Source of the DNA: an uncultured virus (IMG/VR IMGVR_UViG_3300035696_000032) | Taxonomy: Duplodnaviria > Heunggongvirae > Uroviricota > Caudoviricetes | IMG/VR virus record: IMGVR_UViG_3300035696_000032 | Direction: 5' to 3' (one strand) | Length of the DNA stretch: 64,000 nucleotides | Shown here: positions 421-49,462 of the stretch, piece by piece | Position numbering within the stretch: position 1 is the first letter of the stretch | Layout: every line of letters begins with the position of its first letter | Position numbers and translations under genes: made by a program | Notes under the pieces: model-generated | What the model was told of the DNA's origin: nothing | Database searches by the model: none | The model's input: only the letters and a program-made list of their open reading frames with translations

Positions 421-687
421 ATGAAGGTCGTCCGAGTCCGCAGGAAGGACGGCTCCTCCTACATGGCGGAAATGGTCGCGGACAATCCCTACATCAAGCC
501 CTCCGCGATGCGACGCCACGAGTGCGCGGAGATGCGCTTGGTCAGGACGATGGAGCACCGTTGGAATCGGATTGCCGTCATGCTGAGCGCGGGCGCAATT
601 CGCCGCGCCGGCCCTGAACTCAAGGCCCTGAGGGGTGACATTCGCAGTCTGAGGGCCATGCACAAGGGGATGTTCCGATGCAGCTAG
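421..687 (+). CDS. Leader-tagged protein 1 (basic, unknown function)
   Basis: N-terminus MKVVRVRRKDGSSYMAEMVADNP. Confidence 0.8.
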   Translation: MKVVRVRRKDGSSYMAEMVADNPYIKPSAMRRHECAEMRLVRTMEHRWNRIAVMLSAGAIRRAGPELKALRGDIRSLRAMHKGMFRCS

Positions 688-878
688 TCCGCGTACGCCG
701 AAAGGATGGAACGAGCTACCTCGCGCAGGTCGTGAGCAGCAATCCGGGATACCGTGTCCAGCGGCTGGAGCACGCCGCGTTCGGGGCCGTCACGCGGAGA
801 GAGTACGCGCTGTGGCAGGTCGGCGCGGTCGGAGCAGTCGGATTGCTCTTCGGATACCTGCTGGGCAAGGGGGCATGA
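678..878 (+). CDS. Leader-tagged protein 2 with C-terminal TM helix
   Basis: MQLVRVRRKDGTSYLAQVVSSNP ... LWQVGAVGAVGLLFGYLLG. Confidence 0.8.
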   Translation: MQLVRVRRKDGTSYLAQVVSSNPGYRVQRLEHAAFGAVTRREYALWQVGAVGAVGLLFGYLLGKGA

Positions 879-879
879 A

Positions 880-1176
880 ATGCAGCTAGTACGAGTGCGC
901 CGCAAAGACGGAACGTCCTACCTCGCCGAGGTCATCGAAGAGAACCCGCGCCTCTCCTACGCGAAGCGTCAGAGGCTGCGGACGAGTTCGTTCGCGTGCC
1001 CGCTCCAGCGCAAGTACCCCATCAACGATGCCGCGCACGTTCGGAACGCGCTCGCCCGCTACCGCCAGAAGCGGACGCTGAAGTGCCCCGGAGGGCTATA
1101 CCGCATCTGTCACGCGGCCCACCGTCACGGAATCAACAGTCCAGTGTGCATCGGGGCGCACCTGCACCGCGAGTAG
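880..1176 (+). CDS. Leader-tagged protein 3, DUF6582-like domain
   Basis: MQLVRVRRKDGTSYLAEVIEENP, then FA-P-xRKYPINDAAHVRNALARY as recalled for DUF6582. Confidence 0.75.
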   Translation: MQLVRVRRKDGTSYLAEVIEENPRLSYAKRQRLRTSSFACPLQRKYPINDAAHVRNALARYRQKRTLKCPGGLYRICHAAHRHGINSPVCIGAHLHRE

Positions 1177-1192: not shown

Positions 1193-2674
1193 ATGGTCCC
1201 TCCGAGAAAGTCCCCGAAACTCCTCGTTAGACCGGTACTCCGGCCGCGGCCCCAGAAGAAGAACCCCTCGGCTGCTGGGAACGTCGCCATCATCGGCGGC
1301 GTCACGGCCGCCGGAATCGGCATCGGCGTCCTCGTGTGGTACCTGACGTCGAAGCCCGGAGGCACGGCGTGCGAATCGCCGGACATGCCGATGACGACGA
1401 GCGGCATCTGCCCGTCGGGCTACGTGGCCGACCCGAGCAGCACCGGCTGCTGTATGCCATCCACGGGATGCACGTCCACGTCGCCCTGCTCTTCTACATG
1501 CCCCAACGGCACCTGTACCTCGGGCACCTGCCAAAACGGCGTCTGCTCCGGCGGTGCGTGCGGTGCCTGCTCGTCCTCCTGCCCTAACGGAACCTGCTCC
1601 CTCGCTGGGCAGACCTGCATCAACGGGAAATGCGGCTGCACGGCGTGCGGGGGTCCGAACTGCTACGACGGGCCCTGCCCCTCGGGTCAGGTCTGTCAGT
1701 CGCCCGGAATGTGCGTGACCAAGGTCAACTGCCCACCGGGCGAGGAGATGATTAACGTCTACGCGGACACCTGCCCGCCGGGCTACCCCTATCGGGACCC
1801 GAACAACCTGACCTGCTGCATGTCGACCGCGCCAAGCTGCGGCGCTTGCTCGCCGTCCTGCACGAAGGGGACGTGCACGTCGGGTACCTGCATCAGCGGA
1901 GGTGCGTGTTGTGGAAGCACCGACGATGTCTACGCCGCGGCCGGAAGCTCCTGTCCTTCGGGCACGACGCGGTACCCGGACGGCCAATACCCGGACTGCT
2001 GCACGGCCCAGTGCCTGTCGCCGAACACGGGCTTCGTCAGCGGGAAGTGCCCGAACTGCACGAAGCAGATTCCCGGCATGAACTGCTGCGAATCCGCCAT
2101 CCCGTCGGGATGCCCCAACACCGAGCCCGAGGCGTACTGCCGCACCGTGGACGACTGCACGACCGGCTACACCTGCACCAACTGCTGCTGCACGAAGGTT
2201 GTCACGGCGGCGACTCCGACCATCACGGTCTCGCCCTCGTCGTTGACCCCTTCGGGCTCAAGCTGTTCGGGCTGCTTCACCGTGAGCGTCACCGGCGCCG
2301 ACTCGGGCGACAACATCGAGGTCTACGACACGGGCGGCACGTACTGGGGCAGCACGAACGCGAACTCCAGCGGCGTGGCGAGCTTCAAGGCGTGCGTGGA
2401 CCAGCAGTACACCGCCGAGAACCTCACCTTCTACGTCAAGGACAACACCTCAGGCACGACCTCGAACCAGGTGACGGTCTCGGTCGCCGGCGGCTGCACG
2501 CTCCCCGACTCGTGCACCCAGTACGGCTGCGGGAAGGACGCCGGGTGCCCAGCGGGCTGCTCCTGCCAGACCGGTAAGGGCGGCTCGGGGACTTGCCACT
2601 CGACCTCCGGCTCGCCGTCTAACGTGAGCCCACCGGCGATGCTCGCCTACGGCTACAACGTGGTGAGGGCATGA
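1193..2674 (+). CDS. Membrane-anchored Cys-rich protein with C-terminal Ig-like domain
   Basis: Basic N-terminus ending KKNP, TM helix, dozens of Cys in CP-G-C repeats, beta-sandwich ending SNQVTVSV. Confidence 0.8.
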   Translation: MVPPRKSPKLLVRPVLRPRPQKKNPSAAGNVAIIGGVTAAGIGIGVLVWYLTSKPGGTACESPDMPMTTSGICPSGYVADPSSTGCCMPSTGCTSTSPCSSTCPNGTCTSGTCQNGVCSGGACGACSSSCPNGTCSLAGQTCINGKCGCTACGGPNCYDGPCPSGQVCQSPGMCVTKVNCPPGEEMINVYADTCPPGYPYRDPNNLTCCMSTAPSCGACSPSCTKGTCTSGTCISGGACCGSTDDVYAAAGSSCPSGTTRYPDGQYPDCCTAQCLSPNTGFVSGKCPNCTKQIPGMNCCESAIPSGCPNTEPEAYCRTVDDCTTGYTCTNCCCTKVVTAATPTITVSPSSLTPSGSSCSGCFTVSVTGADSGDNIEVYDTGGTYWGSTNANSSGVASFKACVDQQYTAENLTFYVKDNTSGTTSNQVTVSVAGGCTLPDSCTQYGCGKDAGCPAGCSCQTGKGGSGTCHSTSGSPSNVSPPAMLAYGYNVVRA

Positions 2675-3063
2675 CGCTGGTCCGTGTGGTCCGCAAGGAC
2701 GGGACGAAGTACCTGGCCGAGGTCATGGAGAACCCCGCGACGACCCACGACCATCCCCACAAGCACTGGATGATTGTGAAGGGCAAGGGGATGATTCAGT
2801 TCGAGCACAAGCACCGTCACGTTCACGCCAAGGGCTCGCTGAAGTTCCACGCCCACAAGCACACGCCCGAGCAGTTGAAGGGAATCTTCCGCGGCTCCAA
2901 GATGAACGAGCGGAGGTACCCCTACAAGGACCTCCGGGAGGATGTCGCCAAGGTCGGTGCGGCCTCCGGCTGCCCGGCGTGCAAAGAGGGGCGTCCGCAT
3001 CGCGCCGGAGAAGACTTTAGGTACCACGCTATGCCGGTCGGCATGGCGTGGGTGGGGTCGTAA
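2671..3063 (+). CDS. Leader-tagged protein 4 (His-rich, CxxC)
   Basis: MTLVRVVRKDGTKYLAEVMENP; ATGA overlap with upstream gene. Confidence 0.8.
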   Translation: MTLVRVVRKDGTKYLAEVMENPATTHDHPHKHWMIVKGKGMIQFEHKHRHVHAKGSLKFHAHKHTPEQLKGIFRGSKMNERRYPYKDLREDVAKVGAASGCPACKEGRPHRAGEDFRYHAMPVGMAWVGS

Positions 3064-3419
3064 TGCCGATTGAAGAGCCCGGATTCGTGCGCCCGATGCC
3101 GGTGAAACTTGACGCCCCGTTCCGCGAGCGGAAGATGGGGAGTCCGTGCACGTTCCCCGGCTGCCACTTCGTCTCCGTCGGCCGCGACATCGAGGAGATG
3201 AAGTACGACATGGAGATGCACTGCCGCAACATCCACTACCGTGACTCCCGCGAGAACTACCGTCTCGCACGGCGCGGTCTCATGGACCACGTCTTCCCCA
3301 CCCCCGGCACGGCCGGCGTCCCTCCGATGCTCACGCGTCGGGTCCCGCAGCCTCCGAGCTACCCGCCACCGCCCGCCGTCGAATACCTCAAGTCCATCGC
3401 ACCCAGGAAGGTAGCGTAG
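3063..3419 (+). CDS. Hypothetical protein with possible C2H2-type Zn site
   Basis: CTFPGC...HCRNIH; TAATG coupling. Confidence 0.65.
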   Translation: MPIEEPGFVRPMPVKLDAPFRERKMGSPCTFPGCHFVSVGRDIEEMKYDMEMHCRNIHYRDSRENYRLARRGLMDHVFPTPGTAGVPPMLTRRVPQPPSYPPPPAVEYLKSIAPRKVA

Positions 3420-3743
3420 GTGCAGCCCTTCACGGAGCGTGCCACGCTCATCACCGACTACGGGAACGTGACACTGGACTTCGCGCTCGACACGCTCGCC
3501 TCGTGGTCGCTGCTCCCACAGGACATCGCCGCCGAACTCAACATCCAGCCGTACCAGGAGGTCCCCATCGAGACGGCGAACGGGCCGACGATGATTCCGA
3601 TGGCGACCGTTATGGTCTCCTTCCACGGCGGTCCGGCGATGCCGGTTCAGTTCCTCCTCGTGCCCTCGACGGTGACGGCCTTGGGCCAGGACGTCATCCG
3701 AAGGTATTCTCTACTGACGCAGAATACCGTCATCGAGCAGTGA
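3420..3743 (+). CDS. Retropepsin-like aspartic protease (DTL in place of DTG)
   Basis: FALDTLASWSLLP, flap ETANG, ALGQDVI; 107 aa single domain. Confidence 0.75.
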   Translation: MQPFTERATLITDYGNVTLDFALDTLASWSLLPQDIAAELNIQPYQEVPIETANGPTMIPMATVMVSFHGGPAMPVQFLLVPSTVTALGQDVIRRYSLLTQNTVIEQ

Positions 3744-3744
3744 C

Positions 3745-3927
3745 ATGAGCTTCACGCTGCACTTCCCCGGTCAGTCGTCCAACGCGCAGCAACGGTTCAA
3801 CATCTGCCTCGACTGCGAGAACGCGATTGTCTACCCCGCCGGGCAGTTGCAGTGCCACATCTGCAAGTGCTGGATGAACCTCAAAACGCGGATGCCGAAC
3901 CAGCACTGCCCCATCGGGAAGTGGTGA
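3745..3927 (+). CDS. Small Cys-rich protein (DUF6171-like)
   Basis: RxxICxxC...CxxCxC-M-LKT...CPxGKW. Confidence 0.7.
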   Translation: MSFTLHFPGQSSNAQQRFNICLDCENAIVYPAGQLQCHICKCWMNLKTRMPNQHCPIGKW

Positions 3928-3936
3928 CGCTCGACT

Positions 3937-3964
3937 TAGGGCTCAAATAGGCTGAGCCGGGTGG
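3937..3964 (+). promoter_or_regulatory. Class L promoter motif
   Basis: AGGGCTCAAATA-N7-CCGGGTGG upstream of ATG 3973. Confidence 0.7.
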
Positions 3965-3972
3965 CTCTAGGG

Positions 3973-5175
3973 ATGCCCCCCGTGAAGGTAGCACCCCTCA
4001 AGGTCCGTGCCATCGCGGCAAAGTCTTCGAAGCCGAACCCCTCGTCTCGGGACCTGGCCATCGTGGTGGGCGGGCTCGGAGCCGTAGCTGTCGGGGCCAC
4101 TGTGCTCTACGTCGTCACGAAGCAGTCCTCGGGCGGCGGGTCGCCAGCCTCGCCCGTCATGCCGGGCTCGACCTCGACGCAGAACGTAGGAGTCAACCCG
4201 TCGGCCACCGTCGCGGGCCAACAGGTGCCCCAGTCGTCCGGCCCCTCGGCATGGGCCTCGACGCCCCCCGGAATCGAGCCCGTCCCAGCCGTCCAGTCCC
4301 CTCCCGCCTACGGCGGAAAGGTTGGCGCCGGCGGCCTCGAAACATGGGGTCCGTACGTGACGAAGCCGCTTCCGCAGATGATGCCGACGATTCCCCAACT
4401 CAAGGAAATCGGAACGGTCGGGCATGGCGTGTGGCCCGCGAGGGCCGCGCCCGTCATCCCAGGGACCAAGATTCCGTTGCAGTACGGTTACTGGGGTCCG
4501 CGCACCGGCTCCGGCATCGTCTCGCCCCGCGCTCCCATGCCGAGCTACGGAGCGGGCGGTGGAGGGACCGGTCAGCGAATCTACCAGTCCGGAAGGACCT
4601 ACGCCGCGCCCGCCGTCCCGTCTCGCATCGGTGACTACGGCGCTCAGTTTGGGAACATCGGAGGAAACAACATGCAGGTAGTCCTGCCCGTGATTGGCGC
4701 GCGCCCGCTCTACGCCCGACCGAAGGTCTACACCATCATGGACAACGTGACCATGACCGGGCCCGGCCCTCGCGTCGCCCAGTACGGCGCGGGCGGTACC
4801 GGCATCGCCATGCCGGTCATCGGCTCGCGTCCCCTCCCCACGCGCCCGAGGGTCTACACCATCATGGACAACGTGACGATGACGGGCCCCGGTCCGCGCG
4901 TGCGCCAGTACGGTGCGGGCGGCGGCGGTCTCGCCTTCTCCATCATGGACAACGTCACGATGACCGGTCCGGGCCCGTTGGTCCGGCAGTACGGCGCGGG
5001 CGGGAACAAAGCCTGCTGCGGCAAGGCTTTCCCGGCGCGCGAGACGGCCTTCCCCGCGATTGCTGCCGCGGGCCGTGGCGGGACCATCCGCAGTGACCGT
5101 TACCCGACGGGTGACAACGGGAACGGCCAGGACTACGGTTTCACCTACTACAAGAACCGAGTGAACATGGTGTGA
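3973..5175 (+). CDS. Membrane-anchored low-complexity protein with internal repeats
   Basis: Basic-NP-TM N-terminus; three IMDNVTMTGPGPxVxQYGAGG repeats. Confidence 0.75.
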   Translation: MPPVKVAPLKVRAIAAKSSKPNPSSRDLAIVVGGLGAVAVGATVLYVVTKQSSGGGSPASPVMPGSTSTQNVGVNPSATVAGQQVPQSSGPSAWASTPPGIEPVPAVQSPPAYGGKVGAGGLETWGPYVTKPLPQMMPTIPQLKEIGTVGHGVWPARAAPVIPGTKIPLQYGYWGPRTGSGIVSPRAPMPSYGAGGGGTGQRIYQSGRTYAAPAVPSRIGDYGAQFGNIGGNNMQVVLPVIGARPLYARPKVYTIMDNVTMTGPGPRVAQYGAGGTGIAMPVIGSRPLPTRPRVYTIMDNVTMTGPGPRVRQYGAGGGGLAFSIMDNVTMTGPGPLVRQYGAGGNKACCGKAFPARETAFPAIAAAGRGGTIRSDRYPTGDNGNGQDYGFTYYKNRVNMV

Positions 5176-5177
5176 AA

Positions 5178-5804
5178 ATGGCGACCAAACCGAAGCTGAA
5201 AATCCGCCTCCAGCCGTCGAAACTAGGCATCAAGCCGAACCCGATGGCCGCGAAGAAGAAGAAGCAGTTGGGCATCGCACTGGGGCTTGGGCTCGCCGCC
5301 GCCGCCGTCATCGGCCTCGCCTACTACCTCACTCGAAAGCAGCCCGCGAGCGGCAACGGGTCCATCGTTACCGGCACGGGCTCGCCTGGCCCGACGCTGA
5401 CCGTCAACGGTGACACGGGCCTGGCCAACGTCATGCCGGGCATCACGGTGCCCATCGCGGTGACGAACGGCAAGCCCGGCGACGCGGTCGTCATCAACTC
5501 GGCGGTCATTTCCGGCACGAACATGGGCTCGACCACGACCATCGCAGCCGGGACGTTCGACCAGAACGGGAACTTCAACGCCAGCACCATCTTCGGCCTG
5601 AACCCGAACGGGCCCGTCCCCAACCCACGTCTCCTGCTGACGTCGTCTCTGCCCGCGAACATGATGACAACGTACAACATCGTGGCCCAGGACACGTCGG
5701 CCGGCGCTTCGAGCAACACCGTCCAGGTGACGGTCTCCCTCGCTTCCTCGAACGGGCCGAAGACGAACGGGCCGAGCAGCAGAAACGGGCCGACATCGGT
5801 CTGA
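5178..5804 (+). CDS. Membrane-anchored Ig-like protein
   Basis: KPNP-basic-TM, then beta-rich domain ending SNTVQVTV. Confidence 0.75.
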   Translation: MATKPKLKIRLQPSKLGIKPNPMAAKKKKQLGIALGLGLAAAAVIGLAYYLTRKQPASGNGSIVTGTGSPGPTLTVNGDTGLANVMPGITVPIAVTNGKPGDAVVINSAVISGTNMGSTTTIAAGTFDQNGNFNASTIFGLNPNGPVPNPRLLLTSSLPANMMTTYNIVAQDTSAGASSNTVQVTVSLASSNGPKTNGPSSRNGPTSV

Positions 5805-5812
5805 GGGCCGCC

Positions 5813-6799
5813 ATGAGTGGTCCGGCCCCCGTTCGAGCCAGGGTAGCGCCCCTTCGGGTTCGACCCATCCCCGTCGTTCGGCATCGAACGAACCCGGCGG
5901 CTCCTGCCCCGGCGCCCCCCAAGAAGACGTCGGTATGGATTCCCCTCGCCATCGGCGGCGCGGTCGCCGCGGCGGCGGGCGTTGGCGTCTACTACCTCAT
6001 CAAGACCTACGGGGGAGGCGGGGGCGGCGGTGGGTGCACGAGCGATTCCCAGTGCCCTTCGGGTGAGCAGTGCTCGGGAGGCACCTGCATAAGTGCCGGC
6101 GTCGCCTGCACGAACAACAGCGAGTGCATGGCGGGAGAGACCTGCCAGAACGGCTACTGCGTCGAGGGGACGGGCTGCGCGGGAACCTGCACCTGCGCGA
6201 ACGGAGCCTCCTGCCAGAGCGACTGTGGCTGCCTCGGCTCGCAGGATTTCTCCTGCAACCAGGGTGCCTGCTACGTCCCGGTGGCAACGAGCCTCACGGC
6301 GCAGGACAGTTCCATCACGATTCCCACCACGGCGAACTACAGCTACACCGAGTGCTACTGGGTCTTCGACTGCACGAGCGCGGGGCCATGCAACTTCAGC
6401 TACCAGGGCGGCAGCGCGGCGACGAACGTCCGCGTGCTTGACCAGTACGGATTCCCGATGGCGGGCGTCCTCCTGAGCTACACGATTAACGGGCAGGCGA
6501 GCCTTTCTGAGACCTCCGGAACGACCAACTCCGACGGCTACGCTCTCGTTCCCGTGCAGATGGGCACCGTCCCGACGTCCTTCCAGAACGGAGGCAACCC
6601 GCCGTACACCAACTGCATCTCGAATCTCTGCGGCGGCAACGGGCAGGGCTCGCAGTGCTCGGAGGTGGACGGTGGTCAGGTAGGGACCATCACCGTGACC
6701 GTATCGGGGACGTCCATTCAGACTCAAATCGTCGTGGCCGCGAGCGTCGATATGTGTTGCGACAACACAGGAGTTGACAACGGGTGCTCATGTACGTGA
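5813..6799 (+). CDS. Membrane-anchored Cys-rich protein with Big-1-like domain
   Basis: RTNP, TM, CTSDSQCPSGEQC repeats, VRVLDQYGFPMAGV...TNSDGYA. Confidence 0.8.
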   Translation: MSGPAPVRARVAPLRVRPIPVVRHRTNPAAPAPAPPKKTSVWIPLAIGGAVAAAAGVGVYYLIKTYGGGGGGGGCTSDSQCPSGEQCSGGTCISAGVACTNNSECMAGETCQNGYCVEGTGCAGTCTCANGASCQSDCGCLGSQDFSCNQGACYVPVATSLTAQDSSITIPTTANYSYTECYWVFDCTSAGPCNFSYQGGSAATNVRVLDQYGFPMAGVLLSYTINGQASLSETSGTTNSDGYALVPVQMGTVPTSFQNGGNPPYTNCISNLCGGNGQGSQCSEVDGGQVGTITVTVSGTSIQTQIVVAASVDMCCDNTGVDNGCSCT

Positions 6800-7782
6800 A
6801 AGTGAGGCCGAAGAAGGTTCCGCGACTGGTGAACAACAAGGTCGTCTACGTTCCGGTCCTCCGCGTCCGTACGAACCCGGCCAAGAAGAAGACGGTGCGT
6901 CAGCGCGTTCGTGCGACGTACCAGACGGTCAAGACGAAGACCACCGCGGCAGCGCAGAAGGCGACCAAGGGCACATGGTTCGAGAAGCACGGCAAGACGG
7001 TCCTCATCGCCGCAGGGGTCGCCGCCGTGGTCGGAGTGGTCGGGGTCGTCCTCTACTACCTCGTCGGCACGGTCGCCGGGGCCCTCAACCCGCCCGCGAA
7101 CAACCCCGCGGCCTGCAACCAACTGACCAGCGAACTCGCATCCCTCTACACGCAAATCAACAACGTCAACCTCGCGGCCTACAAGGTCGGGGGTTCGTAC
7201 ACCTCCCAGCAGCAGGCGGAAATCCAGTCCCTCCAGAGCCAGGCCGCGACGGTGCAGTCGCAGATGGCCGCGGCCTGCGGACCGTCGGCTCCTACCCCGG
7301 GTCAGACCCTCGACAACACCCTGAAGGAGGTCGGCTGGGCGTTCGCTCTCTTCGCGGGTGGCCTAGCGGCCATCGGCGTCGGCGCCTTCGCTTACCGTGC
7401 CTACGTGTGGAGCAAAGTCTACTCGGCCAAGAACGGAAAGGGCAACCCGCCCGAGGACCCGGACGACGTCGAGGTCGGGGACGACTTCAGTCCCGGAGCG
7501 GCCGGGCAGGCCGGGGCTCAGGCCAAGGCCATCACGGACGTGGACAGCGGCGCGACCAGCGCCGACGACGCGAGCACGGCGCTGCGGACGATGGCTTCGG
7601 GCGACCCTGCGATTGCGAGCGCCGACAGCCTCAGCGCGTCGTTCACGGACCTCGCTGCCGCGACGAGCGAGTCCGACCTGGCGGCGACCTACTCGTCGTT
7701 CGCGGACATCTACGCGGCGACTGCGGCGGACGATGCGGAGGCGGCCGAGTCGGCCATCGACGTGATTGCGGAAGTGCACTGA
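6790..7782 (+). CDS. Two-TM protein with coiled coil and acidic tail
   Basis: Basic N-terminus with RTNP; two hydrophobic helices. Confidence 0.75.
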   Translation: MYVKVRPKKVPRLVNNKVVYVPVLRVRTNPAKKKTVRQRVRATYQTVKTKTTAAAQKATKGTWFEKHGKTVLIAAGVAAVVGVVGVVLYYLVGTVAGALNPPANNPAACNQLTSELASLYTQINNVNLAAYKVGGSYTSQQQAEIQSLQSQAATVQSQMAAACGPSAPTPGQTLDNTLKEVGWAFALFAGGLAAIGVGAFAYRAYVWSKVYSAKNGKGNPPEDPDDVEVGDDFSPGAAGQAGAQAKAITDVDSGATSADDASTALRTMASGDPAIASADSLSASFTDLAAATSESDLAATYSSFADIYAATAADDAEAAESAIDVIAEVH

Positions 7783-7798
7783 GGTGTGTTGAGGGGGT

Positions 7799-8137
7799 AT
7801 GCAGTGGCAACTCCCAATCGTCTGGCCTCCCTCCAACGAGATGCCGGTGAGCCCGCCGAGCCTTCGGCTGGTCGCCGACCTGCTCCACCTCTCGTTCGGC
7901 GCCCTCGTCGTGACGGCGGCGGCCGTGTTCTGGCCGAAACGCCCGGACGCGATACCCGCGGGCATCTTCGCGGTCTTCGCCTTCGCCACCATCAAGGACC
8001 CCATCTACGACACCATCTACGAGGGGGACACCTACGAGGCGAGCTTGCTCGACACGGCGGAGTACCTCGCGGGGGCAGCGGTTGCGGCCCTGGCCATCTA
8101 CGCGGCCCGGCAGGGGAAGCACCATGATGGACTGTAG
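7799..8137 (+). CDS. Small multi-TM protein
   Basis: Three hydrophobic segments. Confidence 0.65.
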   Translation: MQWQLPIVWPPSNEMPVSPPSLRLVADLLHLSFGALVVTAAAVFWPKRPDAIPAGIFAVFAFATIKDPIYDTIYEGDTYEASLLDTAEYLAGAAVAALAIYAARQGKHHDGL

Positions 8138-8366
8138 AGCGGAGGAAATCGTCGTCCGCCACCTGACCCTCCACCACATGGACGAGATAGAGCGCGGCGG
8201 GTGGGACGGCATCGACGCCGCGAAGGTGGCTCAGGCGGTCCGACTCCCCGAGGAACAGGTCGTGCGCGTGCTGGACGGCCTCGAAGGCCGCATCTGGCCC
8301 TATCGCCCCGTCTCGATGGACGTCTGCTACGCTCGTGTGCATCCTCAAGTAGCCGGAGGTGGGTAG
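8124..8366 (+). CDS. Small HTH-like protein
   Basis: IDAAKVAQAVRLPEEQVVRVLDGL. Confidence 0.55.
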   Translation: MMDCRAEEIVVRHLTLHHMDEIERGGWDGIDAAKVAQAVRLPEEQVVRVLDGLEGRIWPYRPVSMDVCYARVHPQVAGGG

Positions 8367-8380
8367 AGGGTCCGAGCACC

Positions 8381-8851
8381 ATGCGCGAGCAACTTCCTCC
8401 AAAGCTCAAGTCGAATCCGGTGGTGCCGATGGACTCGTACGACGACCGGCCCACGGACAAGTTCCAGACGAACGACCCCATCGCGCTTGCCATCGCCAAG
8501 TACTACTACGAGCGCGAGTGGAGCGTGAAGCCCATCATCCCCAGGGGCATCGACGACCCCGACCAACCGTACTTCGCCATCATCACCCGATTCGAGGTCG
8601 AGAAGGGCGACTACCTGACCATCCCCATCGGCTACATCCCGGGCGACCTTCCGGACAGCGAGGAGTTGCGGCGCCGGCGGTTCGACTACGGAGAGAACCG
8701 CATGGCCGGCCCCCTCGTCGGCCAGGGCGAGATTTGGATTACCCGCGCCAAGGGGCGCGGGAAGTGGGAGGCCGAGCGATGGGTCCTCTACCCCCCTAAC
8801 AGCGGCCCACGGTGGCGCAAGGCGGAGACGATTGCGTTCTCCACGGAGTGA
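8381..8851 (+). CDS. Hypothetical protein
   Basis: Operon position; N-terminal KLKSNP. Confidence 0.65.
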   Translation: MREQLPPKLKSNPVVPMDSYDDRPTDKFQTNDPIALAIAKYYYEREWSVKPIIPRGIDDPDQPYFAIITRFEVEKGDYLTIPIGYIPGDLPDSEELRRRRFDYGENRMAGPLVGQGEIWITRAKGRGKWEAERWVLYPPNSGPRWRKAETIAFSTE

Positions 8852-8853
8852 AG

Positions 8854-10464
8854 ATGGCGATTGAAGAGCCGAAATGGAAGCAGTGGTTCCAGGAGGTCCT
8901 GGACTCCACGGGCGGAACCATCGGCGGCACCGCGCTCAGCGACGCGGTGATGCAGAAGTACCAGGCCGATACCGGGTCCACCGTTGCAAGAGGAACGGTC
9001 GACTACTGGCGGTCGAGGCTCCTAGAGAGCCAGATGGTCGGAGGCACGCGTCGCTACTTCTTCCGTGGAGCCGGTGCAGTCCCTGCCACGGCCCCGTCCG
9101 CACAGACGACCACGCCGACGGTTGCGGTACAATCCCCGCCCGCGGGCCCCGAACCGGTGGCCGAGCAGACAGTTCAGGCCGAGAAGGCCGGCCCCGTCCA
9201 GGCGCCGCCGCAGGCCCCGCCCGAGCCCGAGCCGGTCCCGGACGTCCCTCCCTCCCCTCCGCTGACGCCGGAGGAGGTCGACTTCGTTCTGCCCGAAGGC
9301 GTCCGGATTGAGGAGGTCAAGAAGTACAACGGCGACGATACGCTGTTCGAGGGCTCGTACTGGATGCCCCGCGACGTCGGGAGCGACGCCTACTCCCAAA
9401 AGTGGACCGTCATCTGGAAGGCCGACCCGCGGAAGAAGGCCCATCCTTACGGCGACACCTGGGACGTCCTCATCCCGACCGAGGTGGCGACCAAGCAGTA
9501 CACCCCTCAGTTGATTGGTACCCCCTCGCCCATCGACCCGAAGGTCGGCACGGACGTGTGGCTGCTCCAGCAGATGTTCGAGCCGAAGCAGGAGCCGGGG
9601 CACCCGTTCACCGAAGGCCCCGGTCCGGTCCTGATGATGGGCCACTCGGGAACCGGGAAGACGCACTCGGTCTTCGCCGCCCTGGGCGACCCCAAGCTGG
9701 ACGCGAACAAGCGTGCGATGAACGGCGCGCGGCCCTGGGAGGCCCCTCGTGTCTACCGTGCCATCATGTCTTCGATGACGCCCGAGCAAATCATCGGGCA
9801 GTGGATTCCGAACGAGAACGCCTCGCCGGACAAGACGGGCAAGGTCCCGGCGTTCGTGTGGGTCGACGGCGTGCTGACGAAGATGGTCCGGTACGGCGGC
9901 ACGTTTATCGCGGACGAATTGAACATGACGTCGGCGGACGTCCTGGCCGCGGTCAACTCCCTCCTCGATGACCAGCACTTCCTCACGCTCACGCAGCGCA
10001 ACGGCGAAATCGTGCCGGCCCACCCAAAGTTCTGGTTCATCGGCGCGGGCAACCCGGTCGGCCCTGGCTACATCGCCGTCAAGCCGCTGAACATCGCGCT
10101 GCGGTCCCGGTTCTCGATGGTCTTCTGGTACATCTGGAACACCAAGTACGAGGAGAAGACCTACCCGCCCCACGAGATGATTGGGCAAATCCGCAACGAG
10201 TGGGTCCACCGGATGTTCGGCGACCTTCGCACCGCTTTCCTCCCCGGCCGCGTCCACTACCCCGTCTCGTCGCGCGACATGGGCCACTTCTTCAAACTCC
10301 TGAAGCTCGGCGACCGAACCGGCGCCGGCCCCTCGCCCGCGTTCATCTCCCTGGTCTACCTGTTCGAGACCATCAAGGAGCGCAACCTCGTCAAGGGCAT
10401 CATCTCGAACATCATCCCCGCGAACATCAACATCCAGTGGCCTTCGGAGTCCACGGAGGAGTAA
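8854..10464 (+). CDS. MoxR/CobS-like AAA+ ATPase
   Basis: Walker A GHSGTGKT, Walker B FIADELN, sensor AGNP, Arg finger LRSRF. Confidence 0.9.
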   Translation: MAIEEPKWKQWFQEVLDSTGGTIGGTALSDAVMQKYQADTGSTVARGTVDYWRSRLLESQMVGGTRRYFFRGAGAVPATAPSAQTTTPTVAVQSPPAGPEPVAEQTVQAEKAGPVQAPPQAPPEPEPVPDVPPSPPLTPEEVDFVLPEGVRIEEVKKYNGDDTLFEGSYWMPRDVGSDAYSQKWTVIWKADPRKKAHPYGDTWDVLIPTEVATKQYTPQLIGTPSPIDPKVGTDVWLLQQMFEPKQEPGHPFTEGPGPVLMMGHSGTGKTHSVFAALGDPKLDANKRAMNGARPWEAPRVYRAIMSSMTPEQIIGQWIPNENASPDKTGKVPAFVWVDGVLTKMVRYGGTFIADELNMTSADVLAAVNSLLDDQHFLTLTQRNGEIVPAHPKFWFIGAGNPVGPGYIAVKPLNIALRSRFSMVFWYIWNTKYEEKTYPPHEMIGQIRNEWVHRMFGDLRTAFLPGRVHYPVSSRDMGHFFKLLKLGDRTGAGPSPAFISLVYLFETIKERNLVKGIISNIIPANINIQWPSESTEE

Positions 10465-13064
10465 TGGCCCTGTCCGGGTCCGCGGCCCGGACCGTGATGC
10501 CCACGACCTCGGCCGGGCGGGTCGTCGCCGTCGCGCATCAAGTCCGCACCGACCTGGACGGGCTGCCGATGCTCCAGCACCGTCTCCAAATCGTCGCGCG
10601 CGCGCTCGGGGAGTTGGCGTTCATCATCTCGGGCCAGCAAATCCCGATGTCGCTCAAGGTCGAGCCGGAGCACGCGGACCAGCTCGCCTACACGAAGACC
10701 GAGGGGGACCGGTCGCGCGTCTTCATCAACGGCAACGAGGTCATCGCGCGGAACATCAGCGCCGATTCCTCGGGGCACGCCGTTCCCGACACCTCGGGCA
10801 TCTGGAAGATGATGGGCGGGCTCGTCTACCACGAGATGGGCCACATCATGCTCACCCCACGGTGGGTGGACGACTTCCCGGCCGCAGCCCTGGCGCTGCG
10901 CGACAACCTGGTGTCGCTGCGGACCTACCTCGAAAGCATCGCGCCGAGTGACGCGATGGAGTTCGTCTTCCTCTACTACATGATGGCCTCCTACCTGGAC
11001 GCGAGCGTCATCGACGAGGAGACGCGGAAGGCCCTTCAGCTTCAGCCCGTCATGGCGCGCCTGTCCGGACGGATGGAGGAAATCATCCACCCCTGGCTGA
11101 CGGAGCGGCTCGACTACGTGCCCGGTCCGGAGCGACTCGGAGCCGTGGAGGACTTCATCAACACGTTCGGAACCTCGCCGGAGATGGTCAAGAAGGTCGA
11201 GGACCTGGAGAAGCAAGTCGAGAAGATTCAGGCCGAGATGGACCAGAAGCAGGCGCAACTGAACACGTTCGTCGCCGCCGAGAAAGCGAAGTACGACAAG
11301 ATTCAGGCCGACATGGACAAGAAGGGCGTCTCGAAGCGCGTCGCCCGGCGCCACAGCACTCAGGAGGTCACCCTCAAGGCCGACGTGGACCTCGCCGCCC
11401 GACGCATCGTATCGCTCAACAACGAACTGAGCCAGGTCCGTTCCGACGCGGGTCACGGCGGTCAGATGGTCGAGGCGCTGAACAACGCGCGGACGCTGAA
11501 GCAGGTCAAGGGCGAGGAGTACGAGCAGCAGTCCGAGCGGGACATCATGGAGTTGTTCCAGGAGATGATGGTCAACGTCATGCGGTACGACCGGTCGAGG
11601 CCCAGCGAGGGCTGCGTGGTAAGGTACCAGCCCGCCACCACCCTGCCCCACGAGGCGGCGAAGGAGCGCATCGTCGCGCTCTTCAACGAGGTGCTGCCGA
11701 CGATGACGCTGCCCCCGAAGGTCGGCGCGGCGCAGGTCGCCAAGAACTTCGAGACGCTGCTCGAACGCGCCATCGGCGTCGCGGAGAGCCAGAGCCAGAG
11801 CGACACGGCGGGGAACAACTGGGTCATGCTCGTGCAGTCCGAGGCTCCGAACGGTAACTCGGTGATGATGCAGTTCGCCATGCAGCGCAATCTCATCGAG
11901 GACCAGCGGCTCGAAACGCAGCTATCGCAGATGCGCGCCGGGCTGCCGCGGTGGTTCACCTACAACGTGGCGAAGGTCTTCGACCCGAACTTCCGCTACG
12001 GCCTCACCGCGGGGCGCTTCTTCCTCGACCCGAAAGAGTTGAGCACGGACCAGGAGACGACCCGTGCGACGGGCCGGTCGGACGCGACGAAGCCGCCCAT
12101 CGAGGGGATGCTGGAGTGGATGGGCCCCATCGCCGCCGTCTACGTTCCGCTGACGTCCCCTCGCGGCAAGGACGAGCCGAACGACGTCGCCCTCATGGGC
12201 CACATCCAGGCGTTCTCCTACCTCGTGGAGCGCATCTTTTGGCCGACCGAGAGGGACCTGCTCGCGCCGCTCACGTCGGGCATCGAACCCGGCGACATCA
12301 TCAAAATCGACGCGCCCGTGCCGACGGGCGTCCATCACGCGAGCGACAAAGAGGCGGCCACCAAGGGCGCGAAAGAGCGCGCGCAGAAGATTGTGAAGGT
12401 CCAAATGGAGGAAAGCCCGGACCCGTTCGACGCGCAGCGGAAGGTCCTGGCCGGCCTCCTCGATGGCATGGCGCGGTGGGTACGCCGCCGCGCCGCGGTC
12501 CACTCCGTGATGGACGACCTGAACCTGCCACCGGTCGAGTTGCCCGAAACCAAGCCGCTTACCAAACCGCTCAAGCTGCCACAGGCCCCCGCCCCGCCTC
12601 CGCCCGTCGCGGTAGCTCCACCGACCGCGCCCGGCGGGCCCACCCCCTCGGGACCGGTCGCCCCCGTACCCGTGGCCCAGGCCCCGGTGATGCTTCCGGG
12701 CGTGCCGACGCTCGGCCCGAACTCCCCGCCGGCTCGGACCCTGCCGACCAACAAGCAGGCATCCAAGGACCTGGAACTTAAGGTGCTGGCGATTCCCGGG
12801 AATCAGCGTGTCCTCGTCACTGTGAACGCTGGGGCAGATGCCCCGGACAAGGGGACGACGGGGCACGTCAACATCACAGGCGCCGGAATCTCGCGCGGAG
12901 TTGACTTCTCGCTGAAGCCGGTGACCCAGAACACGTTCTACCCCATCACCGTGGACATCTACGACCTGCCGAAGGGCACGAAGTTCGAAGTCGACGTGTG
13001 GGCCACAGCCCCGGGCTACAGCCCCGGGCCCGTCAAGCACATGGAGGTGACGACCTTCTCGTGA
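10464..13064 (+). CDS. CobT-like/VWA-associated zincin metallopeptidase-domain protein
   Basis: HEMGH (HExxH) and distal NLIEDQRLE, separated by a long coiled-coil insert; follows the MoxR ATPase. Confidence 0.75.
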   Translation: MALSGSAARTVMPTTSAGRVVAVAHQVRTDLDGLPMLQHRLQIVARALGELAFIISGQQIPMSLKVEPEHADQLAYTKTEGDRSRVFINGNEVIARNISADSSGHAVPDTSGIWKMMGGLVYHEMGHIMLTPRWVDDFPAAALALRDNLVSLRTYLESIAPSDAMEFVFLYYMMASYLDASVIDEETRKALQLQPVMARLSGRMEEIIHPWLTERLDYVPGPERLGAVEDFINTFGTSPEMVKKVEDLEKQVEKIQAEMDQKQAQLNTFVAAEKAKYDKIQADMDKKGVSKRVARRHSTQEVTLKADVDLAARRIVSLNNELSQVRSDAGHGGQMVEALNNARTLKQVKGEEYEQQSERDIMELFQEMMVNVMRYDRSRPSEGCVVRYQPATTLPHEAAKERIVALFNEVLPTMTLPPKVGAAQVAKNFETLLERAIGVAESQSQSDTAGNNWVMLVQSEAPNGNSVMMQFAMQRNLIEDQRLETQLSQMRAGLPRWFTYNVAKVFDPNFRYGLTAGRFFLDPKELSTDQETTRATGRSDATKPPIEGMLEWMGPIAAVYVPLTSPRGKDEPNDVALMGHIQAFSYLVERIFWPTERDLLAPLTSGIEPGDIIKIDAPVPTGVHHASDKEAATKGAKERAQKIVKVQMEESPDPFDAQRKVLAGLLDGMARWVRRRAAVHSVMDDLNLPPVELPETKPLTKPLKLPQAPAPPPPVAVAPPTAPGGPTPSGPVAPVPVAQAPVMLPGVPTLGPNSPPARTLPTNKQASKDLELKVLAIPGNQRVLVTVNAGADAPDKGTTGHVNITGAGISRGVDFSLKPVTQNTFYPITVDIYDLPKGTKFEVDVWATAPGYSPGPVKHMEVTTFS

Positions 13065-16801: not shown

Positions 16802-17200
16802 ATGAAACTGGTACGAGTGCGACGGAAGGACGGGAGTCGCTATCTGGCCGAGGTCATCGGGCCGAATCCGCGGACGAGCGTCCGCGAGCCGAGCCTTCAG
16901 CAGCGGCTGATGGCGCTGAAGCGGGCCGGGGTCAAGGAGTACAAGGCGGACCTCCGATTCAACCCGCGGATGTCCATGAAGGGGTACGCGCGCGGGTTCA
17001 AGGTTCCCCCGGAGTACCTGGCGGCATGGCGCCGGACGCCACAGGCAATCAGGAAGGCGCTTCGTGAGATGTTCCTGCTCCGTCAGTCGCTCCTGGAAAG
17101 GGACCTTCCGTCCGATGTCAGGGACGAGATTCTGGAGGGGATGACGCGAGCGCGGCTGGCGCTGAAAGCGTACTACAAGATAGGAGGGGTCAGCGCGTGA
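16802..17200 (+). CDS. Leader-tagged protein 5
   Basis: MKLVRVRRKDGSRYLAEVIGPNP. Confidence 0.85.
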   Translation: MKLVRVRRKDGSRYLAEVIGPNPRTSVREPSLQQRLMALKRAGVKEYKADLRFNPRMSMKGYARGFKVPPEYLAAWRRTPQAIRKALREMFLLRQSLLERDLPSDVRDEILEGMTRARLALKAYYKIGGVSA

Positions 17201-17763
17201 TGAAACTCGTCCGCGTCCGCCGCAAGGACGGCACCAAGTACCTGGCGCTCCTCGTCGAGCCCAACCCGCGGCAAACGGTTCGGAAGGCGCTGCCCTATGG
17301 TCTTGTTGTCCGACGCGGCCATGTGGCGATAGGACCGGCGGAGTTTGCCCGTGCCTACTGGAACCTGAGCAACCTCGGCGACCGCCAAGAGATGGCCTCG
17401 ACTCGGGTAGCGTACGCACGGGGGGGTGCATCCTGGCATAGCAAAGAGGTGGCACGCATGGACTTCGAACGCCTCCCGGGATGGTTCAAGAAGCTCGTTC
17501 TCAAGTACGCCTACATCGCCCTCAAGGAATGGAAAGAGAACCCGCGTCACCTGAAGAACCCCATCGTCCTCCGGCGTGAAGCCGCGGGCCACCTCGACCG
17601 AGCGCGGTCGCAAATCGAGATGGCCGCGGAGGCCCTGTCCCCAGCCCGGATGGTTGTGGCGACGGGCGACCCGGAGTCGATGGAAATGGCCGGGCTCCTA
17701 CAGTACATGCGGCGGCTGGAGCGGTCGGTCGACGCCGCGGCCAGGATGCTCCGGCGCCGATGA
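17200..17763 (+). CDS. Leader-tagged protein 6
   Basis: MKLVRVRRKDGTKYLALLVEPNP. Confidence 0.85.
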   Translation: MKLVRVRRKDGTKYLALLVEPNPRQTVRKALPYGLVVRRGHVAIGPAEFARAYWNLSNLGDRQEMASTRVAYARGGASWHSKEVARMDFERLPGWFKKLVLKYAYIALKEWKENPRHLKNPIVLRREAAGHLDRARSQIEMAAEALSPARMVVATGDPESMEMAGLLQYMRRLERSVDAAARMLRRR

Positions 17764-18527
17764 AGCTCGTCCGCATCCGACGAAAGGATGGGTCGAGCTA
17801 CCTCGCACAGGTCGTCGGGAACCCGCTCGACCCCGATACCAAGCGCGCCTACGACGAAGCGCGCCAGGAAATCGGCCACGCTCGTGGTATGCTCATCAAA
17901 ATCGCGCACAACCGCACCATCGGCACGGTGATGGTGGGGCGAGCCCTTCGGGCACAGCTTCTTCTCCTGCGGGCCCAGGAAGCCCTTCGCTTACCCAGCG
18001 AGTACCGGCAGAATCCACGGGCCCCGACCCCGAAAGCGCCTCCCAGGGAGGTCCCCATCGTTCGGTGCGTCACAGAGGTCGACAAGGAAGCCTATCCCGA
18101 TTCGGACGAGGCGCGTGTCGCCGAGATTTGGTTGGCCGGTCAGAAAATCACCGGCGGTCACGGCTTCTGGGGTTCCACCGAGTTGTACCACCACAAGAAC
18201 CCCAAGGACATGGTTGGGGCTTGGACGGCAGGCTGCGGTCGCGCCGGTCTCTGCGACATCGACATCGTCCTCTATGGGGACTGGACCGACGGCCGCCACC
18301 TCGCCGACAGCATCGAGTACGACACCTCGCCGAGCGAGTTCGCCGACCGCGTCGAGAGGGCCGCCAAGGACCGTGGCAGGGCGTACATCGAGAAAGAGAA
18401 CGAGACGTATTTCGACCGCGATGAGGTCATCTACGCGGCCTACGTCTTCCTGCACGTAATCGACGACCTGCCGTTCCCCAGGGACAACGTGCGCCTCGTT
18501 CGGACGGCCGCGACCAGGTCCCCGTGA
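17760..18527 (+). CDS. Leader-tagged protein 7
   Basis: MKLVRIRRKDGSSYLAQVVGNP. Confidence 0.85.
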   Translation: MKLVRIRRKDGSSYLAQVVGNPLDPDTKRAYDEARQEIGHARGMLIKIAHNRTIGTVMVGRALRAQLLLLRAQEALRLPSEYRQNPRAPTPKAPPREVPIVRCVTEVDKEAYPDSDEARVAEIWLAGQKITGGHGFWGSTELYHHKNPKDMVGAWTAGCGRAGLCDIDIVLYGDWTDGRHLADSIEYDTSPSEFADRVERAAKDRGRAYIEKENETYFDRDEVIYAAYVFLHVIDDLPFPRDNVRLVRTAATRSP

Positions 18528-20018: not shown

Positions 20019-20023
20019 TGGAT

Positions 20024-20158
20024 GCCGGGGTAGCTCAGCTTGGCAGAGCACCTCTGAAAGGCGCCGCGGAGACGGCCATTAGGCCGCAGTACTCGGCAAC
20101 TTGGGGCCTAGGACCCAAGCAATCGGAGGGGTCAGCGGTTCAAATCCGCTCCCCGGCG
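20024..20158 (+). ncRNA. tRNA-scaffold RNA with a structured insert replacing the anticodon loop
   Basis: Acceptor GCCGGGG/CCCCGGC, D arm GCTC/GAGC, T arm AGCGG-TTCAAAT-CCGCT; about 65-nt insert. Confidence 0.75.
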
Positions 20159-20289
20159 CCCAATCAGGGTCCGCCCGCTCGTATGCCGGTCAGGTTAACC
20201 AAAGCCCTTCCGGGGGTGAGGGGAGTTCCCAAGGCGCTGGTACCGGACCAGACTCCCCGTAGGCGCCGGCCGAGACATGGACGGACAAC

Positions 20290-20368: not shown

Positions 20369-20390
20369 TAGGGCGGTTGGTGAGCCCGGA

Positions 20391-25493: not shown

Positions 25494-25494
25494 C

Positions 25495-25580: not shown

Positions 25581-25584
25581 ATAG

Positions 25585-25668: not shown

Positions 25669-25677
25669 GATGAGGAG

Positions 25678-27120: not shown

Positions 27121-27873
27121 TCAGTGCGCGAAGCTCAGCATGTGCTTCCGCAGGTACCGCCGCACCGCGCGGACGAACGTGTCGTCGAACTGACCGCGCT
27201 TGTTGGGGTCCTGGAGGATGTCGCCGTAGAAGTCCGTCCGGTAGCCGGTGTCCTCCATCGCCTGCATGATGAGCGAGTATGGGAACATATCCCGGTCGAT
27301 GGCCTCCTTCAGGTCGCCGGTCCACCGCGTCTCGTCCGTGCCAGGGTCCCAGGAGACGTCGATGAGCTTTCGCCGCAGCAGCTTCAGGTAGTGCTCGATG
27401 GACTCGGAGATGGCAGTGTCCTCGGGCTTTTCACCGCCAGGGCGCGCGTTGAGGACCTTACCGGCGTAGTCGAGCGCGAGCCCCTCGTCGAACGGGAACC
27501 TCTGCCCATCCGTCGCGGTGTAGAGCCAGGGGCCGCCGACCCCCCGACCGGTCGTGCTGATGCTGCCGCCGATGTGGGCGAGGCGGAGCCCCAGCTCGAT
27601 GCGGTCGCGGGTCGTCATCGTGTGCCAGCCCCCGGTCCGCAGTACGAGTTTGTCGGGATAGTAGTGGACCACGTCCGTCTGGTGAAGGATGAGGCTGACG
27701 CTGCCATCCCCTTCCTGGACGAGGTAGGTGTTCCGGTCGACCTTCTTCCGACCCTTGCGACCGTGCAGTAGGAGTGTCTCCACCTGCTGCGGAAGGGGAT
27801 TGGACTTCGGGAGGACCCACGCCAGGTACGCCGAGCCGTCGCGGCGGCGCACGCGGACGAGGTTCTGCCACAC
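27121..27873 (-). CDS. Leader-tagged protein 8
   Basis: MWQNLVRVRRRDGSAYLAWVLPKSNP, then a domain with LRTGGWHTMTTRDRI. Confidence 0.8.
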   Translation of the reverse strand: MWQNLVRVRRRDGSAYLAWVLPKSNPLPQQVETLLLHGRKGRKKVDRNTYLVQEGDGSVSLILHQTDVVHYYPDKLVLRTGGWHTMTTRDRIELGLRLAHIGGSISTTGRGVGGPWLYTATDGQRFPFDEGLALDYAGKVLNARPGGEKPEDTAISESIEHYLKLLRRKLIDVSWDPGTDETRWTGDLKEAIDRDMFPYSLIMQAMEDTGYRTDFYGDILQDPNKRGQFDDTFVRAVRRYLRKHMLSFAH

Positions 27874-49042: not shown

Positions 49043-49462
49043 TCAACCGAAGAGCGCGGACAACCCGCTGACCATTTCGTTCTCGGCGCGGAGGCGCTTG
49101 ACGATGCGGTCGATGAGCGCATCGCGCTCCATGTTGTCCTCCTCCTGACCGACCTGGATGAGGTCCTCCCATTCGTAGCCGAGTTCCCGGGCCAGCGACT
49201 GGAGCGCGTCCACCCATCCGCGACGGTAGGCTGCCAACCGCTGGTAGGTCTTCGGGTCGGCGCCGGGCCCAGGTCCGAGCGGGTCTTCGTAGACCGCGGG
49301 AACCTCCTGCGGGACGCGGATGTTCGCCTCCGTCACCATGTAAATCTTCTCGGGGAGTACGACTTCGAGCGGCAGGTCGACCGCGGCCTTGGGCGGCTTC
49401 ATCTCCTCCGGATTCGGGCGGACGGGCGGTGGGTGCTTCAGTCGAACCTTGGGGAAGCTCAT
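49043..49462 (-). CDS. Hypothetical protein with basic-NP N-terminus
   Basis: MSFPKVRLKHPPPVRPNP; LARELGYEWED. Confidence 0.7.
   Translation of the reverse strand: MSFPKVRLKHPPPVRPNPEEMKPPKAAVDLPLEVVLPEKIYMVTEANIRVPQEVPAVYEDPLGPGPGADPKTYQRLAAYRRGWVDALQSLARELGYEWEDLIQVGQEEDNMERDALIDRIVKRLRAENEMVSGLSALFG

Follow-up and report, generated by a model that had tools for sequence, protein, structure and literature searches.

In a 64,000-nucleotide stretch of DNA from an uncultured virus (IMG/VR record IMGVR_UViG_3300035696_000032), analysed here at its full length and called the window below, five adjacent genes encode membrane proteins that begin with a real, conserved N-terminal element: a basic, Val- and Pro-rich stretch closed by the dipeptide Asn-Pro (NP) ahead of a transmembrane (TM) helix. 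This class-2 leader was regarded as a class of its own in a preliminary description of the DNA, but is likely a degenerate form of the class-1 leader, a β-hairpin that also ends in NP and heads other proteins of the same virus. By analogy with known systems, the NP-closed leader may be a clade-specific, modular N-terminal docking or sorting tag, possibly also a propeptide, a reading on which our confidence is evenly divided.

Five adjacent membrane proteins with an NP-closed N-terminus

The five genes, named here by the first position of their leaders (1193, 3973, 5178, 5813 and 6790; Table 1), each encode a tail with one NP, 21–29 residues from the ATG, and a hydrophobic 19-residue stretch after it in Kyte-Doolittle plots. 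All NP motifs cited in the preliminary description were recovered, and its pattern of a basic, Val/Pro-rich N-terminus closed by NP before a TM helix holds for these five proteins. Their N-terminal tails are 29–71 residues long and contain 6–20 Lys and Arg with 0–1 Asp and Glu, as against 0–2 Lys and Arg in the 25 residues past the helix. Positive charge on the N-tail with little after the helix suggests an N-in/C-out topology, and the five products, each with a single helix and positive charge on its N-terminal side, are predicted to be single-pass proteins of the type II signal-anchor kind. Like such proteins, they have a single TM helix, strong positive charge on the N-tail and a large Cys-rich ectodomain; unlike the usual type II signal-anchors, they have unusually long N-tails with a conserved motif common to soluble proteins of the same virus. 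The parts beyond the helix are long, are Cys-rich (58 and 26 Cys) or give weak Ig-like matches below the Pfam cut-offs, and contain several Asn-x-Ser/Thr sequons. In the 6784–7782 protein, of the 6790 family, a second and weaker hydrophobic stretch lies at residues 185–203.

The distance of NP from the N-terminus falls between 16 and 31 residues, whereas its distance to the helix ranges from 5 to about 40. The first of these is set and the second is variable, and NP is therefore not a signal that goes with the helix.

Asn-Pro against chance and in relatives

Genes were called with a self-trained codon model (93 genes), the open reading frame (ORF) at 678–878 was added by hand and four starts were corrected, giving 94 proteins with 18,178 residues. 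The background frequency of NP in this set is ordinary: 37 occurrences in the 15,208 residues of the non-leader proteins, or 0.0024 per residue, where composition predicts 0.0021. Its position is not. The Asn of NP lies at residue 21–31 in 14 of the 94 proteins against 2.7 expected, these being the eight class-1 proteins, the five class-2 proteins and, at 63116, a protein unrelated to them. The Poisson P(≥13) is 5.6e-6, in a count whose cases are not independent because the eight class-1 proteins are paralogues. NP is enriched at this position only and not across the proteome; of the observation that would speak against the earlier proposal, an NP frequency and position like those of shuffled or early-gene proteins, the ordinary frequency was found, and leaders head none of the 40 genes behind early-type boxes.

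Any single tail could contain NP by accident. When the tails of the five proteins were shuffled, each with its own residues, NP arose in 14–43% of shuffles per protein, and among the non-leader proteins NP occurs at residues 16–31 in 4 of 81, close to the expectation of about 3. The joint shuffle value for the five is 4.7e-4. Four further cases had been described as showing the same pattern, and shuffling gives NP in a fraction of 0.23 for the C-terminal tail of an 882-residue putative fibre, 0.17 for the N-terminus at 43933/43948, 0.26 for that at 49462 and 0.29 for that at 8381. On shuffling, each of the four is compatible with chance; in the 8381 case NP is retained in relatives.

Retention of NP in orthologues whose flanking residues have changed is stronger evidence than shuffling. 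Relatives were located through the neighbouring ATPase, which is 57% identical to that of the window in loci L008 and L009, 42% in L010 and 38% in L011; the comparison covers these four of the loci found, the other 28 (at most 30% identity) being left out. In the 6790 family the position of the NP Asn is occupied by Asn, Asn, Asn and Thr, the Thr-Pro belonging to the L010 member, and Pro is invariant in all four sequences. In the 1193 family the L009 orthologue retains NP and the helix behind a diverged leader, and in the 5813 family the L008/L009 orthologue retains NP and the second half of the leader. The soluble 8381 family retains NP in L008, L010 and L011, that is, in all four viruses. 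A profile of the 6790 family searched against 1.84 billion representative sequences returned 24 matches, and 9 of the 18 scorable tails contain NP, compared with 2.9 expected from shuffles; on the remaining 6 the TM finder failed, and by eye two have NP and three do not. Most members that lack NP have a poly-Pro tail instead. These comparisons indicate that the NP closing the basic N-terminal stretch is a conserved feature and not a product of chance.

It had also been claimed that NP always lies on the basic, presumably cytoplasmic or particle-interior, side of the membrane. Hydropathy and charge counts agree with this for the five type II proteins, but as a universal rule it does not hold. 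The 6784–7782 protein has a second NP (7084–7104 region), on the outer side about 10 residues past the helix, which is invariant in the four-member alignment of the 6790 family (N100/P101); the 44223 protein has NP just past its helix; and a multi-TM protein that runs into the start of the window carries an acidic tail with NP at residue 25.

Relationship to the class-1 hairpin leaders

Class-1 leaders are about 22 residues long and strongly conserved, have NP at residue 21–26, and head eight proteins of the window and one just upstream. Comparison of these leaders showed that 193 of 381 residue-identical codon pairs differ in the codon used. This synonymous variation points to selection on the peptide and speaks against a conserved DNA or RNA element beneath the leader. 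The AlphaFold2 model of the 880 protein places strands at residues 3–7 and 13–17 in a block with predicted local distance difference test (pLDDT) scores of 82–85, followed by a linker (residues 27–37) with scores below 50 and then a helical domain. The leader module heads proteins with unrelated C-terminal parts, in 8+1 class-1, five class-2 and two looser cases.

The module is confined to this group of viruses in the searches made. A class-1 profile run against 5.8 billion proteins gave 15 rows, 11 of them at E ≤ 2.7e-9 and all of these with the leader, seven on the window's own contig and four on three other contigs of this virus group; the remaining four (E ≥ 2) are unrelated GGDEF proteins. 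An exact degenerate pattern of the class-1 core found five loci in IMG/VR, all attributable to chance. Neither curated families nor solved structures match the leader: residues 1–30 of the leader proteins among the 93 window proteins have no Pfam or PHROG match, and the leader profile gave one chance-level match in PDB (E 0.06). A leader hidden Markov model (HMM) run over all ORFs of the window and of L007–L011 found only its own training sequences.

The link between the two classes comes from the relatives. Three type II membrane proteins of L010, with Cys-rich outer parts, begin with a shorter hairpin-NP leader, and hairpin-like leaders are also found in the L011 and L010 members of the 6790 family and in several of its 24 database members. 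The hairpin leaders of the L011 and L010 members align to the window's 6790 leader with the Pro invariant, and the 5813 protein has a weak full-length match to L010:752, which itself has a hairpin leader. Alignment of class 1 with five such bridging leaders by hhalign gave a probability of 66% and an E value of 5.7e-5 over 21 columns. Both classes have a first strand of alternating hydrophobic and Arg/Lys residues near the N-terminus and reach NP 16–31 residues from the start.

Some arrangements of the module in single proteins were also observed. Hairpin-plus-NP look-alikes, recognised by eye and given no score by the leader HMM, occur at the C-terminus of a 95-residue Cys-rich protein (L010:5196-5483) and midway in a 234-residue ORF (L010:3368-4072), and the module may not be strictly N-terminal. 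One class-1 protein of the window, P0011 (17197–17763), differs from its counterpart P0016 in a relative, in which the leader is joined straight to the C-terminal half. The approximately 90 extra residues of P0011 sit between the second strand and NP of the leader and an internal NP-ending look-alike; as the difference is bounded by NP-ending half-repeats, it suggests recombination between them.

Leaders head genes behind late-type promoters

Two promoter-like box types, each strongly over-represented, were used to sort genes into expression classes. A G-rich, TATA-like 11-mer of late type has 15 matches against 0.94 expected: five inside tRNA genes, one between tRNA genes, one in a gene-free gap and eight before genes. 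Four of these eight lie exactly 23 nucleotides before an ATG (3973, 16242, 32463 and 59258), three lie 21–24 nucleotides before a start codon, and the eighth has no start assigned to it. An AT-only 8-mer of early type has 10 matches against 1.2 expected and precedes units of small genes. The spacing between box and start suggests leaderless transcripts; it also set the starts at 16242 and 59258 and confirmed that at 3973.

With genes assigned to late or early units by our reading of the two box types, leaders head 8 of the 35 genes that follow a late-type box, compared with 0 of the 40 that follow an early-type box (Fisher P 0.0014), in agreement with the difference between late and early operons that the preliminary description had proposed to look for. 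Seven more leader genes (421–2671, 27873 and 49462) lie in units with no visible promoter, outside these 35 and 40 genes.

A possible docking or sorting tag

An NP-closed N-terminal position is shared, within one virus, by at least nine soluble or tail-anchored proteins and by type II membrane proteins. The class-1, 8381 and class-2 families together bear out the earlier suggestion that the NP element is common to membrane and soluble proteins. We propose that both classes would be versions of one clade-specific mini-module of about 17–30 residues, made up of an alternating hydrophobic/basic first strand or a full β-hairpin and then an Asn-Pro cap, which would have degenerated to a Pro/Arg-rich form in the membrane proteins of this virus. 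Such a tag would gather a variety of unrelated late proteins at a single partner or site, most likely where the particle is assembled or on its interior face, and on the membrane proteins it would face the cytoplasm. NP would mark the end of the tag, and removal there, as in the T4 capsid-targeting sequence, is possible.

The closest parallels are found in tailed phages. A passage in PMC9026906 describes the T4 capsid-targeting sequence as a short N-terminal tag common to unrelated virion proteins, and giant-phage head proteins also have propeptides (PMC7411985). Like these elements, the leader is short and N-terminal, recurs within a single virus on late proteins that have nothing else in common, is modular and transferable in evolution, and ends at a defined short motif. 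It differs from the T4 element in sequence and in its closing motif, N-P as opposed to a Glu-type protease site; it is also present on type II membrane proteins, in a virus whose host is probably archaeal; and the window yielded no recognisable gene for a prohead protease, scaffold or capsid. Encapsulin and bacterial-microcompartment cargo peptides are likewise short terminal tags that dock diverse cargo to one shell protein. Unlike the leader, they lie at the C-terminus or form a helix, and they do not end in NP. We found no earlier description of such a tag in the archaeal-virus literature on propeptides and virion-protein N-termini or in family libraries, and within this limited search the tag appears to be undescribed.

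Several points weigh against reading the two classes as one tag on virion proteins. When class 1 is compared by hhalign with the window's own class-2 leaders, only the NP aligns (E 0.15), and an HMM trained on the class-1 leaders together with the bridging ones recovers no class-2 leader of the window. The TM helices come from hydropathy only and the start codons are inferred, that at 3973 with support from promoter spacing. L008 and L009 are the same virus, which leaves three independent relatives. BLASTP sets the 5813 leader opposite the post-NP linker of L010:752, so that the orthology of these two leaders is ambiguous. Finally, the only tie of the leader proteins to the virion is the late-promoter link described above.

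Alternative explanations

A rather unlikely alternative is that the leader is a propeptide and is cut off at NP, between the Asn and the Pro, by Asn cyclisation (autoproteolysis) or by a virus protease. This is compatible with the tag reading, because the T4 capsid-targeting sequence is both tag and propeptide. NP is the sole invariant feature among leaders that differ widely in length and sequence, a relative's protein lacks precisely the segment between two NP-ending half-repeats, and the leader genes have conserved neighbours in a retropepsin-like gene and an AAA+/HExxH pair. Asn-Pro is also an established autocleavage bond: passages in PMC10328401 describe Asn-Pro autoproteolysis in the periplasmic domain of RsgI and discuss reovirus mu1 and aquareovirus VP5 as well, and FlhB-type proteins have the same bond cut in their NPTH loop. 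The modules of RsgI, mu1, VP5 and FlhB/YscU-type proteins resemble the leader, whose Asn-Pro is largely conserved, in having an Asn-Pro beside β-strands; in RsgI, as in the membrane proteins here, it lies near the single TM helix of a signal-anchor-like protein, and cleavage of mu1 frees a short N-terminal peptide (PMC10328401).

The known Asn-Pro autocleavage modules lie in conserved folded domains with helper residues, whereas here a hairpin precedes NP and the sequence after it is variable and modelled with low confidence (the linker at residues 27–37 of the 880 protein), with no TH or other auxiliary residue following the NP. The RsgI site is located on the outer face of the membrane, unlike the NP on the basic inner side of the leader proteins. 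The L010 member of the 6790 family has T-P, which is unable to cyclise; Asn is thus present in three of four family members, and NP is missing from half of the scorable tails of the wider family. As for the candidate proteases, the retropepsin-like protein has the triplet D-T-L in all four clade members and the HExxH protein has no peptidase family match. A more specific version, in which the leaders would be propeptides that target proteins to the capsid or the assembly site and are cut between N and P by assembly-triggered Asn cyclisation or by the retropepsin-like, AAA+ or HExxH proteins, so that mature proteins, soluble and membrane alike, would start with Pro, we consider unlikely.

It is more doubtful still that the leader does no more than set the N-in orientation of signal-anchor proteins, as an n-region that is long and basic, with NP as a structural cap that has no role in sorting or processing. 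The strong positive-inside bias would fit, as would the position of NP in the 1193 and 3973 proteins, 5–6 residues ahead of the helix, and the sole N-to-T change would be conservative for a helix N-cap. Against this, the helix can be as much as about 40 residues away, the NP-closed module heads at least nine proteins with no N-terminal TM helix, and the soluble 8381 family retains NP in all four viruses. That Pro-rich basic tails make NP by accident and that the cases were picked afterwards is very improbable, and for the five membrane proteins the joint shuffle value, the retention of NP at 38–57% ATPase identity despite changed flanks and the excess in the wider 6790 family largely refute it.

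Two known kinds of signal were rejected. None of the 62 NP sites listed is part of an NPGP motif, as 2A-like ribosome skipping would require; the nearest is leader 678, where NP is followed by G-Y. In Sec and Tat signal peptides a short charged n-region leads directly into a hydrophobic core, behind which lies a peptidase site, and class III signal peptides have a basic residue and Gly just before the core. Judged by these consensus features, a Sec, Tat or class III signal peptide does not fit tails of 29–71 residues or a motif that is also found on proteins with no hydrophobic core.

Other proteins with terminal NP

The 882-residue, repeat-rich putative fibre (53733–56381, minus strand) closes with a TM helix followed by a very basic, Pro-rich tail of 57 residues; fibres do not usually have an anchor at the C-terminus. 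Three proteins of the window (43933, 44226 and 58343, all on the minus strand) and one just upstream (L007:43) begin with Met, one to three residues and then NP; three such near-start cases compare with 0.68 expected in the window (Poisson P 0.03), with uncertain start codons. The 44223–44828 product (minus strand) starts with a TM helix and is very densely set with Asn-x-Ser/Thr sequons, which suggests a heavily N-glycosylated surface protein.

Table 1. Leaders, other NP-bearing termini, neighbouring genes, promoter boxes and further features of the window (aa, amino acids; nt, nucleotides)
Feature	Position	Strand	Details
Class-1 hairpin leader	421..489	+	closed by NP
Class-1 hairpin leader	678..746	+	66-aa protein ending in predicted TM helix (807-863)
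Class-1 hairpin leader	880..948	+	98-aa DUF6582 protein; AlphaFold2: two-stranded hairpin
Class-1 hairpin leader	2671..2736	+	His-rich 130-aa protein
Class-1 hairpin leader	16802..16870	+	first of three consecutive in late-type unit
Class-1 hairpin leader	17200..17268	+	protein also has internal half-copy ending in NP
Class-1 hairpin leader	17760..17825	+	
Class-1 hairpin leader	27796..27873	-	250-aa protein
Class-2 leader	1193..1267	+	493-aa Cys-rich predicted type II membrane protein; NP residues 24-25; TM helix 1283-1339
Class-2 leader	3973..4041	+	400-aa predicted type II membrane protein; NP residues 22-23; TM helix 4060-4116; first gene of late-type unit
Class-2 leader	5178..5243	+	~208-aa predicted type II membrane protein; NP residues 21-22; TM helix 5268-5324
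Class-2 leader	5813..5896	+	328-aa Cys-rich predicted type II membrane protein; NP residues 27-28; TM helix 5933-5989
Class-2 leader	6790..6879	+	330-aa predicted membrane protein; NP residues 29-30; TM helix 6997-7053
Short N-terminus ending in NP	8381..8419	+	156-aa soluble protein; in all relatives just upstream of AAA+ ATPase
Class-2-like basic Pro-rich N-terminus ending in NP	49409..49462	-	139-aa soluble protein
N-terminus with NP (43948 case)	43904-43948	-	
C-terminal NP case	53736-53906	-	last 57 residues of 882-aa protein
Retropepsin-like protein	3420..3743	+	between class-1 and class-2 genes; Pfam E 6e-6, just under cut-off
AAA_5 (MoxR/CobS-like) ATPase, then 866-aa coiled-coil protein with HExxH	8848..13064	+	
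Late-type TATA-like box	3939..3949	+	23 nt before ATG of first class-2 gene of its unit (3973)
Late-type 11-mer boxes	3939, 16208, 21543, 32487(-), 46682(-), 47854(-), 48707(-), 59282(-)		before structural-looking units
AT-only 8-mer boxes	18533, 37172(-), 38495(-), 39512, 45011, 52525(-), 60281, 61349		
TFIIB-like protein	22406-23332	+	cyclin repeat and weak zinc-ribbon match
eRF1-like protein	45295-46182	+	domain 2 (E 5e-35) and domain 3
tRNA clusters (five; 32 genes)	25494-29194, 48800-50479, 52538-52835, 59307-59466 (as listed)		ARAGORN; 27/32 confirmed by Rfam

Neighbouring genes and the type of particle

The retropepsin-like protein, whose gene separates the class-1 from the class-2 genes, is a candidate for binding or cleaving the leaders. 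The usual retropepsin triplet is D-T/S-G; with its conserved D-T-L this protein may be a non-catalytic peptide binder. A search against PDB sequences gave nothing useful for it. The gene pair for the AAA_5 ATPase and the 866-residue protein follows the class-2 genes in all relatives, with the HExxH of the latter kept in the window, L008 and L010, and is a candidate machine for processing or assembly. No informative family emerged when the 866-residue protein, the 8381 protein and the N-domain of the ATPase were scanned against Pfam at relaxed thresholds.

The preliminary description had also suggested a membrane-containing particle, for which nothing in the window speaks. Pfam and PHROG searches over the 93 window proteins (64 kb of a 98,235-base-pair contig) recognised no capsid, portal, terminase, prohead protease or scaffold; capsid, portal and terminase genes may be encoded in the other 34 kb or so of the contig. 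The only structural-looking proteins with look-alikes are two paralogues of 219 and 220 residues (56641–57975, minus strand; 71% identical), whose look-alikes are hypothetical proteins of tailed viruses. The 219-residue protein has one weak relative in IMG/VR, among fibre-like genes of a low-GC, tailed-phage-like contig; its AlphaFold2 model has a mean pLDDT of 37.8, too poor for a fold search.

A new virus lineage with a probable archaeal-type host

The window begins 572 bases from one end of its metagenome contig, has a G+C content of 64–69% and is tightly packed with genes, neighbours often overlapping by a few bases. Its content includes 32 tRNA genes and genes for a TFIIB-like protein, an eRF1-like protein that has only domains 2 and 3, an RNA ligase, a NADAR protein, the AAA_5 ATPase and two β-helix proteins. 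A TATA-like box about 24–30 nucleotides before the start codons of leaderless genes, together with a viral TFIIB, suggests that the host is probably of archaeal type. In the Atlas, the TFIIB-like protein lies closest to clusters of such proteins from giant viruses, eukaryotes and Nitrososphaerota, which serve as leads only. The eRF1-like protein has only about 67 residues in place of the stop-codon-reading domain 1; against GTDB genomes it gave one 51-residue match, in a metagenome-assembled genome of Actinomycetota, too weak for host assignment, and the 6790-family alignment gave no match there. Among the tRNA genes, that at 26315–26407 is 93 nucleotides long with a four-base anticodon as read by ARAGORN, and may be intron-bearing or frameshift-suppressor-like. 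The 863-nucleotide gap with no called genes (20019–20881) holds a tRNA T-loop-like 11-mer at 20346–20356, outside the predicted tRNAs, which may be a tRNA fragment or the remnant of an attachment site.

Searches of IMG/VR with the ATPase and two alignments, that of the 6790 family among them, found no relatives, and tblastn of the 219-residue and TFIIB-like proteins against deposited phage genomes found no match. This virus group, which unites a TFIIB-like factor with a truncated eRF1-like protein and as many as 32 tRNA genes and is not represented in IMG/VR or among deposited phage and archaeal-virus genomes, is a new lineage.

If the leaders are propeptides cut at NP, they would constitute the first propeptide or targeting system for an archaeal virus and a new minimal context for Asn-Pro cleavage, of interest to protein chemistry. 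If they are instead a common address label, they would provide a handle on the assembly of a large uncultivated virus of archaeal type: the tagged proteins would be its cargo list, and the partner would be retrievable with a 20-residue tag. It would also mean that soluble and membrane proteins can obey one sorting signal.

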